DNA from: Chiloscyllium plagiosum
Taxonomy: Eukaryota
Length of the DNA stretch: 39,804 bases
Reading direction: 5' to 3'
NCBI RefSeq assembly: GCF_004010195.1
Contig: NC_057753.1
Location: 9,564,932-9,604,735, forward strand
The notes beneath the pieces are model-generated. The model saw only the letters and a program-made list of their open reading frames with translations. It was not told the DNA's origin and did not search any database. Positions 4,188-39,642 of this stretch are shown here, one piece after another. A program made the translations under genes and the position numbers. The number at the start of each line of letters is the position of its first letter. Position 1 is the first letter of the stretch.

Positions 4188-4404
4188 GAAATGTGTTGCT
4201 GGAAAAGCACAGCAGGTCAGGCAGCATCCAGGGAACAGGAGAATCGACGTTTCGGGCATAAGCCCTTCTTCAGGAAGCCCTTCCTGAAGAAGGGCTTATG
4301 CCCGAAACGTCGATTCTCCTGTTCCCTGGATGCTGCCTGACCTGCTGCGCTTTTCCAGCAACACATTTCCAGCTCTGATCTCCAGCATCTTCAGACCTCA
4401 CTTT
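4188..4404. mobile_element. Third fold-back Penelope-derived element in L1 (opposite orientation)
   Basis: Same arms. TSD TTCCTTACAAATATG at 4173-4187 and 4405-4419. Confidence 0.85.
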
Positions 4405-7082: not shown

Positions 7083-7551
7083 TCAATCCCCCTGCGATGG
7101 CACATGATCTCGCCAGTGTGGCAGATCATGTGCCATCGCAGGTAGGAGGAGTTGGTGAAGCCGGAGGAGCTGGTGAAGCCCTTCCCGCACTGACAACAGG
7201 TGAGCAGGTTGTCTCCAGTGTGGACCCACTGGTGGGTCAGCAGCCCAGAAGAATCGATGAACCCCTTCCCACCCTCTGAGCAGGTGAATGGCCTCTCTCC
7301 GTGTGGACCCGCTCGTGCGTCTGCAGGTTGCCCATCCGACTGAATCCCTGCCTGCACATGGATCAGGTGAATGGCCTCTCCCCTGTGTGAACTCACTGGT
7401 GTGCCAGCAGATTGCACAGCCAACTGTATCCCTTCCCACAGTCGGTGTAGGAGAATGGCCTCTCCCTAGTGCAAACGCGTCTGTGAGTTTCTAGCATCGA
7501 GGGGGAAAGGAACCCTTTCCCACAATCCTCACATTTCCATGGTTTCCCCAT
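7083..7551 (-). pseudogene. C2H2 (Kruppel-type) zinc-finger pseudogene, about 5 fingers
   Basis: [29 protein letters not shown]-type linkers, ends HVPSQGD*. In-frame stop at 7393-7395, frameshifts and lost Cys/His ligands. Confidence 0.9.
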
Positions 7552-18749: not shown

Positions 18750-18821
18750 TTCCCTGACTGGGAGTCGAACCCGGACCGCGGTGGTGAAAGCAGCAGATCC
18801 TAATCATTACACCACCAGGGA
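18750..18821 (-). tRNA. tRNA-Glu(TTC), degenerate, probable pseudogene
   Basis: TCCCTGGTGGTGTAATGATTAGGATCTGCTGCTTTCACCACCGCGGTCCGGGTTCGACTCCCAGTCAGGGAA. Acceptor stem intact, C-C mismatch in anticodon stem, D-loop GG lost. Confidence 0.85.
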
Positions 18822-22199: not shown

Positions 22200-22273
22200 C
22201 GTCCGTGGGTGGCTTCGAACCACCAACCGTTCGGTTAACTGCCGAACGCGCTGACCAATTACACCACAGAGAC
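22200..22273 (-). tRNA. tRNA-Asn(GTT), degenerate, probable pseudogene
   Basis: GTCTCTGTGGTGTAATTGGTCAGCGCGTTCGGCAGTTAACCGAACGGTTGGTGGTTCGAAGCCACCCACGGACG. Invariant U33 changed to A, one acceptor mismatch. Confidence 0.88.
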
Positions 22274-24374: not shown

Positions 24375-25498
24375 GCCCAGGATAGAAAATCCGAAGGGAT
24401 GAACGTTTTCTTATTTTTTGAACATTCACAAAGCTAAGACTGGGTTTTGGTGATTGTTTCTTTTCCACTCCCAGGAGCCGCAGTGGTTGAGGCGGTGAGT
24501 TGGGGAAAGTAAAATGCGCCCGTGGGGCTATTTCAGCTTCCCCTCATCTGACAGCGCTGTGACTTGACTCCGATGTTCTCAGGGACATTGACTGACGCGA
24601 AACAGTGAAAAGATTCTCATTTTTGTGCATAAATGCCCGATCAATTTTCTCAAAGAGCCGCTTCGTTAAATAATATCGGATTGCCGGAAGTGGGGATGGG
24701 GCAGAGCTACCAGAACACGGCGAAGGGAAACATTTGTTCAAAGTGAAAACAAGTGTTGCAGATGGTTCGCCCGCGCAGTCCGACTCTGAATGAATCCTCC
24801 AGCTGCATTACTGCTTAATTCTGAGTGTGATACTTCAGGAAACGGAGAAGTGAAGTGATTGCAGACAGAGCTGAACAGGTTGAACGTGTATGAGGAATGT
24901 CAGCAATGAAGGTAGATTGGAAAGTTGGGACATTTCTCTTTGGTGAACAGAAGGTTGGAAGTTGGCCTGATTGACGTTTTTCAAGTCATAAGGGGTCGAG
25001 ACAGAAGAAATAATGGAGTGAGAATGCTCCCACGCCTGAAAGGATCGAGAATGATTAGGCAGATTCATTAGGAAATGAAGTAAAAGTGACATTAGGAAGA
25101 ACGTTTTCGTACAGGGAGTGGTTAGGGTCAGTAAATCCCTGTTGACATTGACAAAGAGGCAGATTCAATGGACACAAAAAGGAATTCGGTGGTCATGTTC
25201 AATGTAACATTGTGTAGATTTACAGGGAGAAGGCAAGAGAATGATAAGAACAGGAGAACTCATTGACTTATTGTGCAGAGGCAGCAGAAACTGTGCTGCG
25301 ACACATTGTGTGATTATGAGTGAAGTCACGCTTCAACCAACAGAATGTGGGAATTTGAACAAAGTTTATATTTACACAGCCTCGACACGTCAATGCAACA
25401 AAATGACACAGCAGCAGTGGAAGAGATCTTTGACGTCATTCTCGAACATGCTTGCTGCACTCCAGATGAAAAGCTGATATTGTCTTTGCAAAGCCTGC

Positions 25499-25570
25499 TG
25501 TGCACTGGTGCAATGGGAGTGTGATGGGCCCCAAACCCAGTGGGCGATAGATTGAAGCCATCTCCTACTA
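25499..25570 (+). pseudogene. Initiator tRNA-Met pseudogene
   Basis: TGGTGCAATGGGAGTGTGATGGGCCCCAAACCCAGTGGGCGATAGATTGAAGCCATCTCCTACTA aligns without gaps to iMet TGGCGCAGCGGAAGCGTGCTGGGCCCATAACCCAGAGGTCGATGGATCGAAACCATCCTCTGCTA. Anticodon CAT lost. Confidence 0.75.
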
Positions 25571-26368
25571 CCCAGTCAAGGTCGCTTTTTGCAACTTTCC
25601 CGTGCTCTGTTCTGCCCCTTACCTTTTCATCTGCTTCCCAAAGCTTCGCGTATCTGAACTAAATAGTCAGATTGATACACGAGTCAAATTTACACAGTTG
25701 AGGTGGCACCCTTGTGGAGCTCTGAGTGGTCTTGTCCAGTTCTCTGTCGGTGTGTTCTGATCTCAAGTGTGAAACCTCTTCTCTGAGATGGCAATGAACC
25801 GGTGAAGTTGAAACACATGACTTGCTGTTTTTGTCCATTTCCTGCAGTAAAGAAACCGACGCCCATGTTACAAAAGACTTTCTGCAGGATTGTTGTGTCA
25901 AGACAAATACTGAATACCAAACAGGCTGCACAAAAATGCACTCATATCAATTTACCTGAGGGAAGAGTCTCCGGTGTCCATTTCTCTCTGTCCCGACAGC
26001 ACAGCATCTTTCTATCTCTCCGTTAACAGGACCTTTGGAACAAGTTCAAAGTTGCCCATTTCCTATGCATGACTGTAACTGACGTCTCCTACGCCAAGTA
26101 ATAGTGAGAGAGAGCAGAAGAGCGAATGGGCTCTGCCTTCCCCTAGCACAACTTGCAAGTAGAAACAAAATGGTTCAATTTTTCACCAGTGGAGAGAGCC
26201 CGGTCCCTGGGGACGGGACAAACAGCAGCGTCCTGGGAGCAGGAGACAGATTGAGAAGCAGATGTTCTTGAATCTCTTTGCTGCTGGAAATTCTGGGAGC
26301 AATGTACAATGTATTTCGTACTGAGCAAGTCTCAGCTGCTTTAGGAGCTGGTTGTACCCACGGCAGGT

Positions 26369-26460
26369 GGTTCGTTGGTCTCATGGTGTGATTCCAGCTT
26401 TGGGTCTTCCAGCATATGCAGATGTGGGAGAGATCCCGGGATCCAATCCCAAACGAGCCC
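26369..26460 (+). pseudogene. tRNA-Pro(TGG) pseudogene with 20-nt intron-position insertion (26405-26424)
   Basis: GGTTCGTTGGTCTCATGGTGTGATTCCAGCTTTGGG[TCTTCCAGCATATGCAGATG]TGGGAGAGATCCCGGGATCCAATCCCAAACGAGCCC. Removing the insert leaves exactly 72 nt colinear with tRNA-Pro. Confidence 0.85.
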
Positions 26461-27398
26461 TCGTTTCTTTAACTGACTTCAGCATAAATGCGCGATCACT
26501 TTTCTCAAAAACCCGCTTCATTAAATAAGATCGGACTGCCTGAATTAGGGATGGGGCAGAGCTACCATTTCGGTGAACACGGCGAAGGGAAACATTGTTA
26601 AAAGTGAACAGAGGGATTGCAGATTCTTTGCCCGCGCAATCCGAGTCTGAGTGAATCCTGCAGCTGCATTACTGCTGAGTGTGATACTTCAGGAAGCGGG
26701 GAAGTGAAGTGATTGCAGACAGAGCTGAACAGGTTGAAGTGAACGAGGAATGTCAGCAATGAAGGTAGATTGGAAAGTTGGGGCAGTTCTCCTTGGAGAA
26801 CAGAAGGCTGAAAGTTGGCCTGATTGAAGTTTCCCACGTCATGGGGGGGGGGGGGGGGCGGGGGGGTCTAGACAGAGGAAATAATGTAATGAAAAAATTC
26901 CCACGCCTGAAAGGATCGAGAACGATTCGGTAGAGATTTAAAGTCATCAGGAAAAGAAGTAAAAGTGACATTAGGAAGACCGTTTTCGCACAGGGAAACC
27001 CCTGTCTGACAGTGACAAAGAGGCAGATTCAAAAGACACAAAAGGGAATTCGATGGGCATGTTAGAAATAACAATGTGCAGATTTACAGGAAGAAGGCGA
27101 CAGAATGATACAAATAGAGACACCTATTTACATATTGTGTTGAGCCAGCAGAGCTAAGGTGGGCCGTGTAGCCTCAGTCTGCGCTGTCACACATTTCGTG
27201 ATTCTGAGTGAAATCGGAGTTGGACCAACAGAACGTAGGAAATTTGACAACGGGTATATTCTGCCCATCAGGATACTCCATCACAGCAATGAAGTTGTTT
27301 TGACATCATTCTCGAGGGTACATGACACAATGCAGATTCAAAACCGAGTATTCCTTTGAATCACGGAGTAATTTGTTTACAGTTATTCAGTTGAGGTG

Positions 27399-27455
27399 AG
27401 CGGAGTTGCGCATTGGGAGCCACTCCAGTTGATAGGTCGAAGCCGTTTTCTCCTG
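27399..27455 (+). pseudogene. Second iMet tRNA remnant, anticodon arm deleted
   Basis: AGCGGAGTTGCGCATTGGGAGC...AGTTGATAGGTCGAAGCCGTTTTCTCCTG, at the position paralogous to 25499-25570. Confidence 0.55.
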
Positions 27456-28822
27456 TGTGATAGTCCCACCAGCACTCCAATTTGCTGTGCTTCCAGTCAG
27501 TAGATGCAGCTCACTATCCCATACTGATACACGGGCCACGATGACCCAGCTGTGGTGACAAGCTTGTGAAGGGCTGAGTGCTCTTCTCCTGTTTTCTGTC
27601 GGCCTGCTATGATCCGATTCATCAAACCTCTCTTCTCCGAGATAGGAATAAACTGGTGAAGGTGAAACACATCAATTACGGTGTGTTCCATGTGCAGGAG
27701 GTCCTACAGTAATTCCCCACGCTGTTTCACACAGCAGCATCCTCTCGGTGAATTACGCTTGGCAAAAAGTGGCTTGAACCTAATAAATATCCCCCATTGG
27801 ATTGGACTGACAGTTTATAAACTTCAGGCTAACCGCTAACGTGGAGAGGGGCCGTCAGACTGTGGTTTCCGCTCCTGCTGTTGAATAAATATCACTTTAA
27901 CTGTGTTCAGTGAGAGGAAAGGATTTGCTGTTGGTGGGAAACATTTCTATCTGAACTCGCTGTCACTCTGCTATAACAGGAGGAGCTGGGACCTCCGGAT
28001 ATAGTGAAACATAAAGCTGGGAATTTCTAGATTATGTTGTAAAAAATATCGGTGTAATGTTATTCACACCGCGCTATAACCAAGCGGCTGCGTTTAAATC
28101 CCGTGATGAACAGTTTGTGTTTTATTTCTCACATTGGGGGAGCTGCCCAAAACAATGGGCACACCACCTCCCTGACACAGTGTTCACAAATCAAACTGAC
28201 AGCACAGCTTCACGTGTGATCGAAAGTTTCCGTAAAGACTTGACTCAACAAATAAGTTGAAACTTTATTGCTGGAACAGCACAACAGGTCAGGCAGCATC
28301 CAGGGAACAGGAGATTCGACGTTTCGGGCACAGGCCCTTCTTCAGGTTCCTGAAGAACTTCTATTTATGGTTAAGGGAAGTGATCGCACTGCAATGATAT
28401 TATGTTCTTCGTAACAAAGGAGATCAACAGTTCATGTCTGTTCTGTCTCTCGAAACAATTTCCAACTCTCTCTCAATAAAAATCTGAAAGAACTGCGGAT
28501 GTTGTATATCAGAAACAAAAAACAGGAGTTGCCGGTGACCCTTCCACAGAACTGATGGTGATTGGGAAAATGTCGGTTTATATGCAGGAGATATTGTGGG
28601 AGGAAGGCGGAGATCAGGACAGAGCCCAAAGTGAAGGAAGAACTGTTGGACAGAAAAAGGAGTAGATAACCATCTGCGTTTGAGGGTGAATAACTGTTCA
28701 TGGAAACTGTTCGGAGCTAACAATAGATTAGATTAGATTACTTACAGTGTGGAAACAAGCCCTTCGGCCCAACAAGTCCACACCGACCCGCCGAAGCGCA
28801 ACCCACCCATTCCCCGACATTT

Positions 28823-28862
28823 AGGTTCCTGAAGAAGGGCCTGTGCCCGAAACGTCGAATCT
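28823..28862 (+). ncRNA. Minimal hammerhead ribozyme motif (best copy of fold-back family)
   Basis: AGGTTC-CTGAAGA-A-GGGC-CTGT-GCCC-GAAA-C-GTC-GAATCT: 6-bp stem I, CUGANGA, 4-bp stem II, GAAA, GUC triplet. Confidence 0.6.
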
Positions 28863-29023
28863 CCTGTTCCCTGGATGCTGCCTGACGACACAGTGTTCAC
28901 AAATCAAACTGACAGCACAGCTTCACGTGTGATCGAAAGTTTCCGTAAAGAAGACTTGACTCAACAAATAACCCGAGTGAACGTACTCCTTTCATGATTT
29001 GAAATGCAAGAAGTTGACGTCAG

Positions 29024-29095
29024 TGAGCCTGATGTGATTTGAACACACAACCTTCTAAACTGGAGTCAGACGCGCTACCGTTGCGCCACAAGCTC
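29024..29095 (-). tRNA. tRNA-Trp(CCA), diverged but cloverleaf fully pairable
   Basis: GAGCTTGTGGCGCAACGGTAGCGCGTCTGACTCCAGTTTAGAAGGTTGTGTGTTCAAATCACATCAGGCTCA. A and B boxes intact. Confidence 0.9.
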
Positions 29096-29475
29096 ACAGA
29101 AAGCTATTCACTTCTATTTATGGTTAAGGGAAGTGATCGCACTGCAATGATATTATGCTCTTCGTAACAAAGGAGATCAACAGTTCATGTCTGTTCTGTC
29201 TCTCGAAACAATTTCCAACTCTCTCTCAATAAAAATCTGAAAGACCTGCGGATGCTGTATATCAGAAACAAAAAACAGGAGTTGCCGGTGACCCTTCCAC
29301 AGAACTGATGGTGATTGGGAAAATGTCGGTTTATATGCAGGAGATATTGTGGGAGGAAGGCGGAGATCAGGACAGAGCCCAAAGCGAAGAAAGAACTGTT
29401 GGACAGAAAAAGGAGTAGATAACCATCTGCGTTTGAGGGTGAATAACTGTTAATGGAAACTGTTCGGAGCTAACA

Positions 29476-29694
29476 ATAGATTAGGTTAGATTACTTACAG
29501 TGTGGAAACAAGCCCTTCGGCCCAACAAGTCCACACCGACCCGCCGAACCGCAACCCACCCATTCCCCGACATTTACCCCTAACCTAACACTACGGGAAA
29601 TTTAGCATGGCCAATTCACCTGACCTGCACATCTTTGGACTGTGGGAGGAAACCGGAGCACCCGGAGGAAACCCACGCAGACACAGGGAGAATG
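29476..29694 (-). mobile_element. HE1-type SINE, 5'-truncated
   Basis: Reverse complement matches the 3' two-thirds of 13106-13415. Confidence 0.88.
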
Positions 29695-29988
29695 TGGGGT
29701 GGGGAGGGAAATATATCCCTGGCGGTGGGGTCCTCCAAACAGACCCCACCACCAGGGATATATTTTCTTCCCCACCCCTTTCCGCCTTCCGCAAAGACCG
29801 TTCCCTCCGTGACTACCTGGTCAGGTCCACGCCCCCCTCTCCTCCCTGACCTATCACCTTCATCCCCTCCCCCACTCACCCATTGTACTCTATGCTACTT
29901 TCTCCCCACCCTCACCCTCCTCCACCTTATCTCTCCACGCTCCAGACTCACTGCCTTTATTCCTGATGAAGGGCTCTTGCCCGAAACC
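29695..29988 (+). mobile_element. Penelope fragment with small fold-back and truncated hammerhead core
   Basis: LQTDPTTRDIFSSPPLSAFRKDRSLRDYLVRS (PLE linker region). About 37-bp inverted repeat at 29696-29779. CTGATGAAGGGCTCTTGCCCGAAAC at 29963-29987. Confidence 0.75.
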
Positions 29989-37030: not shown

Positions 37031-37275
37031 TTGACGTCAATATCTGACAGTGACTCAATCCAGCGGGACCCCTGCAATTTTCAACTATGATTTTTAGAAG
37101 GAGAAAAGCTTTTTGGTTCCTGTTTGAATATGTTTTCAGTATCTGTGGGACTGCATGAGAGACCCTATTGTTGCAGCGCACTGAGTGTGGAGCCTGAAAC
37201 AGTTATACAACCTGGAAAGAGAAATTCACCCCGGAGAGGGCCTCTACATGTGTGTGTGCGGCTGAAGCTTTGGCC

Positions 37276-38141
37276 ATGGAGAAACCTGAGGATCCCACCC
37301 TGTGGAGTCGCGACTGGAAGTGTGGCGACTGCGGGAAAGACTTCCATGTTTCATCTGTCCTGGAGACTCATCGATGCAGTCACACCAGAGAGAGGCCATT
37401 TCCTGCCTCGAGTGCGGATAGGCTTTCAGCAATTCCTCCAAAATGCTAAAGCGCCAGTGGGTCCACGCCAGGTGGACCTAGTGCCTTTCAGTTGCCTAGT
37501 GTGCAGGAAGGCCTTTACCCAGGCCTCTGCTCTGCTAATCCACCAACGGCTCCACACAGGGGAGAAGCCCTTCAGCTACCCCAAGTGCGGGAAGGCCTTC
37601 AGCAATCCTTCTGACCTCCAGGCCCACCATTGGGTCCACATGGGGGACAGGCCATTCCCCTGCAGAGCACGGGAAGGCCTTCAGCCGTTCCTCCACTCTG
37701 CTGAGGCACCAGTGGGTCCACACGGAAGAGAGGCTCTTCAACTGCCCAGAGTTCAGGAAGAGCTTCATCCAGGCTTCCACCCTGCTGACGCACCGGCCCT
37801 TCAGCTGTCCCGAGTGCAGGAAGGGATTCATTCAGGTGGGCAACTTGCGGATGCACCAGCAGGTCCACACCAGAGAGAGGCCCTTCAGCTGCCCCAAGTG
37901 TGGAAAAGGCTTTACCTGTTCCTTCCATCTGCTGACCCACTGGCGGGTCCATACGGGGGAGCGGCCCTTCAGCAGCCCCAAGTGCGGGAAGGCCTTCACC
38001 CAGGCCTCCACCCTGCTGACCCACCAATGGGTCCACACTGGGGAGAGGCCATTCACCTGCTCTCGGTGCGGGAAGGCCTTTACCTGCTCCTTCCACTTAC
38101 AGAGACACCAGCAGGTTCATGTGCCATCGCAGGGGGATTGA
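37276..38141 (+). pseudogene. C2H2 zinc-finger pseudogene, about 10 fingers
   Basis: [22 protein letters not shown] and HTGERPFT linkers; ends HVPSQGD*. At least three frame breaks or deletions and lost Cys (SYPKC, SSPKC). Confidence 0.92.
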
Positions 38142-38147
38142 AGAAGC

Positions 38148-38450
38148 AACGGCTGAGTGCCATTATTGACTGGACTCTCAACCCAGTTCTGGGGATTCCA
38201 AGATTCAAATACCACTGCGGCCAATGGCAGAATTGGAGTTCGGTCAGAAATCTGCAGTTCAGAATCTAACATAAAACTATTTTCACTGGAGTGGAGGGGA
38301 AAAAAACCCCATCCGATTCACTCACTTGCTTTTTAGGGAAGGAAACTGCCATTGTGGGAAAGGATTCACTCAATCGTCCCAGGTGTATCCTTTTCCTGTT
38401 CTGGCCGACATGTGACTTCAGACTCACAGCAGTGGGAAGAAAATTAATTG
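38148..38450 (+). mobile_element. Old tRNA-derived SINE directly after ZNF stop
   Basis: B-box-like GATTCAAATACC. Paralogous to 6790-7075. Confidence 0.55.
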
Positions 38451-39049: not shown

Positions 39050-39642
39050 CTGAAAATGTGTTGCTGGAAAAGCGCAGCAGGTCAGGCAGCATCCAGGGAA
39101 CAGGAGAATCGACGTTTTGGGCATAAGCCCTTCTTCAGGAATGAGGAAAGTTTGTCCAGCAGGCTAAGATAAAAGGTAGGGAGGAGGGACTTGGGGGAGG
39201 GGCGTCGGAAATGTGATAGGTGGAAAGAGGTCAAGGTGAGGGTGATAGGTCAGACGGGAGTGGGGGCGGAGAGGTCGGGAAGAAGATTGCAGGTTAGGAA
39301 GGCGGTGCTGAATTCGATGGATTTGACTGAGACAAGGTGGGGGGAGGGGAAATACCTTGTCTCAGTCAAATCCATCGAACTCAGCACCGCCTTCCTAACC
39401 TGCAATCTTCTTCCCCACCTCTCTGCCCCCACCCCAGTCTGGCCTATCACCCTCACCTTGACCTCTTTCCACCGATCACATTTCCGACGCCCCTCCCCCA
39501 AGTCCCTCCTCCCTACCTTTTATCTTAGCCTGCTGGACAAACTGTCCTCATTCCTGAAGAAGGGCTAATACCCAAAACGTCGATTCTCCTGTTCCCTGGA
39601 TGCTGCCTGACCTGCTGCGCTTTTCCAGCAACACATTTCCAG
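39050..39642. mobile_element. Long fold-back Penelope-derived element, 289-bp inverted arms with 15-nt spacer
   Basis: 39050-39338 is the reverse complement of 39354-39642 with about 11 mismatches. Same family as 1539 and 20403. Confidence 0.92.

Follow-up and report, generated by a model that had tools for sequence, protein, structure and literature searches.

In human, 28 intron-containing tRNA genes fall into four families (PMC8479045, PMC12168002), and the same four have been reported for mouse (PMC8488643). These reports agree with an earlier note on this DNA, which had named the vertebrate families as Tyr-GTA, Leu-CAA, Ile-TAT and Arg-TCT. A survey of GtRNAdb singles out Tyr, Ile, Leu, Arg and Met as rich in introns; its section 12 is silent on Pro (PMC12168002). 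In eukaryotic pre-tRNAs, intron and anticodon form a helix together with an anticodon-intron pair and a 3-nt bulge on the 3′ side (PMC10275265), and this pair is needed by human TSEN for the 3′ cut (PMC8479045). The proline tRNA genes that we describe here from a shark, Chiloscyllium plagiosum, resemble the four families in their short intron between positions 37 and 38, in the pair between a pyrimidine at 32 and a purine at intron base -3 (the third-last) and in the anticodon helix; they also recall human Arg-TCT and Leu-CAA, for which intron-bearing and intronless genes coexist (PMC10275265, PMC8479045, PMC8488643). They differ from all four in isotype and in having the intron in all three anticodons.

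Outside the vertebrates, tRNA-Pro genes of this kind are familiar. Saccharomyces cerevisiae has 10 intron-bearing Pro-UGG genes (PMC4090602), and the Pro-CGG tRNA of Schizosaccharomyces pombe is methylated at C34 (PMC11408192). For sharks, the Squalomix preprint describes tRNA loci in large number, including many with introns, and their clustering on chromosomes (10.1101/2025.06.08.657570); the words "proline", "tRNA-Pro" and "isotype" do not occur in its text, and its Fig. 3A and supplements may list isotypes. In zebrafish, tRNA arrays on chromosome 4 have been described as maternal-type clusters, set against solitary somatic-type genes (10.1101/869651, PMC11574265). The shark Pro genes are similar in that large clusters of variant copies stand beside a few solitary genes, whereas Pro introns go unmentioned in the portions of the zebrafish reports used here, and an oocyte-type role for the shark arrays is putative.

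The window, that is, the whole stretch of 39,804 nt that was analyzed, carries on its plus strand a decayed tRNA-Pro(TGG) gene with a 20-nt insert (26369-26460). The 5′ exon (26369..26404; positions 1-37, 36 nt) includes T32 at 26399, the anticodon TGG at 26401..26403 and G37 at 26404. It is followed by the intron (26405..26424), which is 2 nt longer than the 18 nt usual for the family, and by a 3′ exon of 36 nt (26425..26460), so that the exons sum to 72 nt. The insert starts with T and ends with G, and in this copy alone its boundary could shift by one base either way. However, 14 of 64 relatives with inserts of 18-20 nt have neither the T start nor the G end and allow only the 37/38 site, with which the other 50 are compatible; the insertion site is therefore fixed at 37/38. 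The window sequence and these 14 relatives thus bear out the earlier description of a 20-nt insert at 37/38 within exons of 72 nt. T32 can also pair, as had been proposed, with the antepenultimate base of the insert (A26422, intron base -3), and this base together with 26419-26421 can pair to U32-G35.

Compared with an intronless Pro-TGG gene of the same genome (L059), the window copy has 13 substitutions in its 72 exon nucleotides, and 5 of 20 stem pairs are broken, three in the anticodon stem and two in the T stem. The A box is hit at A14 and G15 and the B box at T54, with A14 and T54 lost. The earlier note had listed damage to the anticodon stem and the B box; both are indeed damaged, but the list was too short, as the T stem and the A box have suffered too. 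Neither ARAGORN at default settings nor Rfam, at the gathering threshold or at E<=1, called the copy. When the ARAGORN threshold was lowered the copy was miscalled as Ile, amid 43 calls across the window, and this output was not used. The first T4 run downstream, a putative Pol III terminator, lies 40 nt away (26500..26503, plus strand). The copy thus has neither the intact stems nor the promoter boxes of a functional gene and is almost certainly a dead pseudogene.

We searched the genome, an assembly of 101,977 contigs totaling 3.56 Gb. From a DNA search came 102 candidates, of which 40 were scored. An exact exon-gap-exon pattern retrieved 27 genes with the TGG anticodon, all with a gap of 18 nt, and 32 with the other anticodons (13 AGG and 19 CGG), the gap being 18 nt in 31 and 11 nt in one. 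A longer gapped pattern with one mismatch allowed gave 72 matches in all three Pro anticodons, 71 of them with 18 nt. Reversed control patterns had no match in any of the gapped searches; set against the 27 TGG and 32 AGG/CGG matches, this argues that the insert pattern is not due to chance. An exact intronless pattern matched seven genes (3 TGG, 3 AGG and 1 CGG), and an eighth intronless gene, a variant TGG, was found in one of the same loci. A TGG gene with A46 was absent from the 19 intronless matches obtained with two mismatches allowed, and an intronless Pro-TGG gene at L058:2546-2617 has a swapped anticodon-stem pair and C20. The pattern counts are lower bounds. The assembly is fragmented and some stretches are N, so intron-bearing and intronless genes can be compared in number only roughly. 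The suggestion that this lineage has a spliced tRNA-Pro family is upheld at the DNA level, in so far as intron-bearing genes with intact members exist; it was understated, since AGG and CGG genes bear the intron as well. Six of the intron-bearing copies (L026, L031, L033, L034, L093 and L094) are dispersed on large contigs with unrelated 5′ flanks, and directly after each comes the head of what we take to be a SINE-like element. They are possibly retroposed unspliced read-through transcripts, or else cases in which a SINE inserted just behind a tRNA gene.

Pairing between intron and anticodon was examined among 74 distinct Pro genes, which cover part of the pattern matches. Left out of the pairing and cloverleaf counts were L081 (identical to L073), L083, L092 and L094 (a truncation or an indel in the 5′ exon) and twenty copies with 20-nt introns (L002-L020 and L025), which were handled separately. 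Of the 62 genes with 18 nt, 59 allow U32 to pair with intron base -3 (43 by U:A and 16 by U.G), as does the window copy. In the register that sets U32-G35 against intron bases -3 to -6, 226 of 248 cells were paired, compared with 73-154 in eight other registers, and this expected register leaves a 3-nt bulge at the 3′ splice junction. Six intact genes were folded without constraint: L038, L040 and L074 gave the anticodon-intron helix with the 3-nt 3′ bulge, and in L050, L075 and L093 a clean register was not obtained. Base 34 matches intron base -5 in 43 of the 62 genes (A for TGG, G for CGG), a level reached by 0 of 10,000 shuffles (32 at most). This covariation was not counted as independent proof: it tracks three lineages, and within the AGG lineage four anticodon switches went uncompensated. 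Taken as a family, the genes show the marks of canonical intron-containing tRNA genes, namely the 37/38 site, the pair of pyrimidine 32 with purine -3, the helix with its bulge and, in some members, an intact cloverleaf. They stand apart from Tyr-GTA, Ile-TAT, Leu-CAA and Arg-TCT in that their exons match the intronless Pro genes of the same genome.

We also asked which parts of the genes have been kept, limiting the test to exon positions 1-20 and 56-72 to avoid bias from the search patterns. Between anticodon classes the exons differ by 0.10-0.13, no more than they do within a class (0.14 for TGG, 0.12 for CGG), whereas the introns differ by 0.54-0.58 and the 20-nt flanks by 0.53-0.65. Likewise, copies lie closer to their class consensus in the free exon positions (0.03-0.08) than in their introns (0.19-0.25). 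Exons have thus been kept while introns and flanks drifted, the pattern expected of working spliced genes. In our own pair-and-invariant test of the cloverleaf, which is not a tRNAscan-SE score, 12 of 66 intron-bearing genes (2 AGG, 4 CGG and 6 TGG) retained every one of the 20 pairs and 11 invariant bases tested; the possibility raised earlier, that the insert is unique to the window copy and has no intact intron-bearing paralogues, is thereby countered. The other 54 failed, the 66 including L085, which was misparsed owing to an internal duplication. A T4 run within 36 nt is missing in 8 of the 12 intact genes. The exons of three distinct intron-bearing TGG genes are identical to those of an intronless gene. 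All eight intronless genes passed the same test, and as they cover the three anticodons, decoding does not depend on the spliced genes.

The members that look most like working genes are two AGG genes, L074 and L075, which lie 3.1 kb apart in divergent orientation, outside the arrays, on a 58-Mb contig (L113; G000:C23:37323900-37328400). Their exons are near-perfect and share C20, and T runs follow 3 nt downstream. Their 18-nt introns are very dissimilar, and in the tree they form a deep branch of their own (support 100/98) with individual branches of 0.39 and 0.33. The array-type AGG lineage (L073, L076-L080, L082, L087 and L088) carries C throughout at position 18, where G is invariant, and nonetheless keeps good T-run terminators and low exon divergence.

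The window copy itself lies within a repeated multi-kb unit (25363..29479, no strand assigned), delimited by blastn of the 10-kb loci L063-L070 against the window. The unit is about 80-85% alike to copies found on unplaced contigs and at other places of its own 15-Mb contig, and in these copies a Met gene and a Pro gene recur together with a Trp gene on the opposite strand. The window holds the Met gene as a decayed relic (25506..25570, plus strand; 78% to an array Met gene, E 5e-11) and the Trp(CCA) gene at 29024..29095 on the minus strand (called by ARAGORN and by Rfam, 62.7 bits). A direct duplication of 467 bp, 98% alike, flanks the Trp gene (28357-28823 and 29110-29576). In four related loci (L050-L052 and L054, near 2333-2424) the neighbor gene at the matching offset receives the call Met, Lys, Thr or Val depending on the unit; a single Met gene whose anticodon is decaying probably lies behind these calls. 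The twenty examined relatives with 20-nt introns are all damaged, 19 by the loss of 1 nt in the 5′ exon and one by the absence of its 5′ part, and three damaging substitutions of the window copy are common to them. In a tree of 69 rows, which took in six of the 20-nt relatives and was midpoint-rooted for drawing only, the window copy is sister to these six with support of 100/99. This position and the common damaging changes indicate that the 20-nt lineage was damaged before it multiplied. On sequence grounds the window copy branches early within the 20-nt TGG lineage, which was apparently copied along with the multi-kb unit; its grouping with damaged copies, together with the altered exon bases and broken pairs given above, agrees with the earlier view of it as a decayed family member.

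We consider it likely, with a probability of roughly 0.8, that there is a true family of tRNA-Pro genes with introns of the TSEN type, of which the window copy is a pseudogene. Following the known pathway, Pol III would transcribe the intact members from their internal A and B boxes, and the 18-nt intron after base 37 would fold back on the anticodon loop of the precursor, with U32 paired to intron base -3, U33-G35 paired to bases -4 to -6 and three nucleotides bulging at the 3′ splice site. TSEN would place its cuts by measuring from the tRNA body and by reference to the anticodon-intron pair; ligation by RTCB would then yield a normal 72-nt tRNA-Pro, which would presumably be charged. The family comprises several old lineages: one is the AGG pair that stands alone on a large contig, and the others, of TGG, CGG and AGG genes, were amplified in multi-tRNA arrays, where most copies are decaying. 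By analogy with the described families, the mechanism is presumably ordinary TSEN splicing. That the family evolved as working spliced genes is, from the exon and intron comparison, very probable, and that at least one Pro locus is spliced today appears probable, if a little less so.

It could instead be that the intron-bearing genes once worked and have all since fallen silent in heterochromatic arrays, with the eight intronless genes supplying tRNA-Pro. The many cloverleaf failures (54 of 66) and the death of the whole 20-nt lineage would fit such a history, as would the report that most predicted zebrafish tRNA genes lie in inaccessible chromatin (PMC11574265). However, the exons of L074 and L075 have been kept while their introns and flanks moved far apart, and the copies as a whole remain nearer their consensus in free exon positions than in introns; we therefore hold silence of the whole family to be unlikely. 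Much less likely again is that the insert arose by chance in a repeat derived from a tRNA (a SINE head or a satellite unit), which was then duplicated and had its exons kept alike through gene conversion by working genes, without ever being spliced. The copies do sit in a repeated multi-kb unit, and several dispersed ones with unrelated 5′ flanks run into a SINE-like tail, but such an origin sits poorly with a fixed position and length, a conserved -3 purine and anticodon pairing maintained in introns that are 54-58% different, and with the solitary AGG pair outside the arrays. We give least credence of all to the idea that what the arrays chiefly yield is precursors that stay unspliced, free introns or small RNAs and not tRNA for translation, or that they chiefly act as boundary sites for TFIIIC. 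Many copies with damaged stems have kept the anticodon-intron helix, and a similar speculation appears in the shark preprint (10.1101/2025.06.08.657570); yet the introns are the least conserved part of these genes, and in the window copy both promoter boxes have been lost.

Within the same genome, gapped patterns also matched 10 Tyr genes and 28 Arg-TCT genes (19-20 nt between anchors), 25 of the latter on small contigs, and Arg-TCT is, to judge from these matches, a second putatively spliced family amplified in arrays. For the one other tRNA group searched in this way there was no match, a result that concerns this single group and is not an isotype survey. By eye, and without a statistic, the Pro introns are unlike the Tyr or Arg introns of the genome. 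The non-vertebrate Pro genes, including S. cerevisiae Pro-UGG, S. pombe Pro-CGG and those in metagenomes, share isotype, site and size with the shark genes. The metagenomes held at least 89 distinct gapped Pro genes, at least 78 of them AGG and mostly with 18-20 nt, from at least 121 loci. Among the matches listed, the metagenome exons differ from the intronless shark gene at 5-11 positions, none at fewer than 5, and the best ungapped intron match was 10 of 18. Five of six tested shark introns were no closer to the metagenome introns than shuffles were; that of L075 was closer on mean score (1 of 300 shuffles) and not on best score (27 of 300), again among the matches listed. Common descent of the shark and non-vertebrate introns was not adopted, as the similarity is at shuffle level in five of six. 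When sequencing runs were searched with L038:400-620, 24 runs were listed, and those of one organism, from three studies, held 0.33-0.67 of the words; one of these studies may be the source of the assembly. Runs of other organisms held fewer than 5 words each in this search, and so gave no evidence of spread to other species.

Nothing on vertebrate Pro introns was found in the portions of PMC10485636 and PMC8450103 covered here. Pro introns are common in other eukaryotes; the papers used here do not list them for vertebrates, and in this genome they are present in all three anticodons. A full-text literature search, with most subscription journals and GtRNAdb outside its scope, found no paper on vertebrate tRNA-Pro introns. 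An older human annotation contains one low-scoring prediction of an intron-bearing Pro-AGG gene, and automated shark genome annotations probably already contain genes of this kind. The vertebrate set has been given as four families from human and mouse, and a Pro family in a shark would mean that the set can vary and would provide a case among vertebrates in which the gain or loss of tRNA introns can be dated. Only tentatively, and with more doubt than confidence, do we extend this to cartilaginous fishes at large, which may have a fifth spliced family covering all three Pro anticodons. Such a family would fall into two classes, one constitutive and represented by the solitary AGG pair, the other made up of oocyte-type arrays; its intron would predate the split of the anticodon lineages, may be ancestral and lost toward mammals, and may direct modification of base 34. 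Intron-directed modification of base 34 is known for other intron-bearing tRNAs. In this genome intron-bearing and intronless genes for the same anticodon stand side by side, some with single-base marks (C20 in AGG genes, A46 in TGG or CGG genes) that would survive splicing, so that one can ask what the intron adds, be it tissue or oocyte expression or base modification. The window copy itself is only a fossil of the family.

The window as a whole shows a tRNA cluster set among zinc-finger genes. A variant tRNA-Glu(TTC) (18750-18821, minus strand) and a variant tRNA-Asn(GTT) (22200-22273, minus strand), both below the Rfam gathering score, belong to the same decayed cluster. A C2H2 zinc-finger frame lies at 37091-38269 on the plus strand (Pfam PF00096, PF13465), with a second 84-bp repeat at 7258-7466, on the other side of the cluster. 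Long hairpins at 1574-1737, 4236-4321, 29695-29779 and 39250-39443 match miRNA models below threshold; we did not accept them as miRNAs on these scores, and they are likely to be inverted-repeat elements. Finally, ARAGORN misplaces the intron in L022, L028, L029, L040, L045, L050 and L055, so that these Pro genes are called Val, Glu or Leu, an annotation trap that could hide the Pro family.
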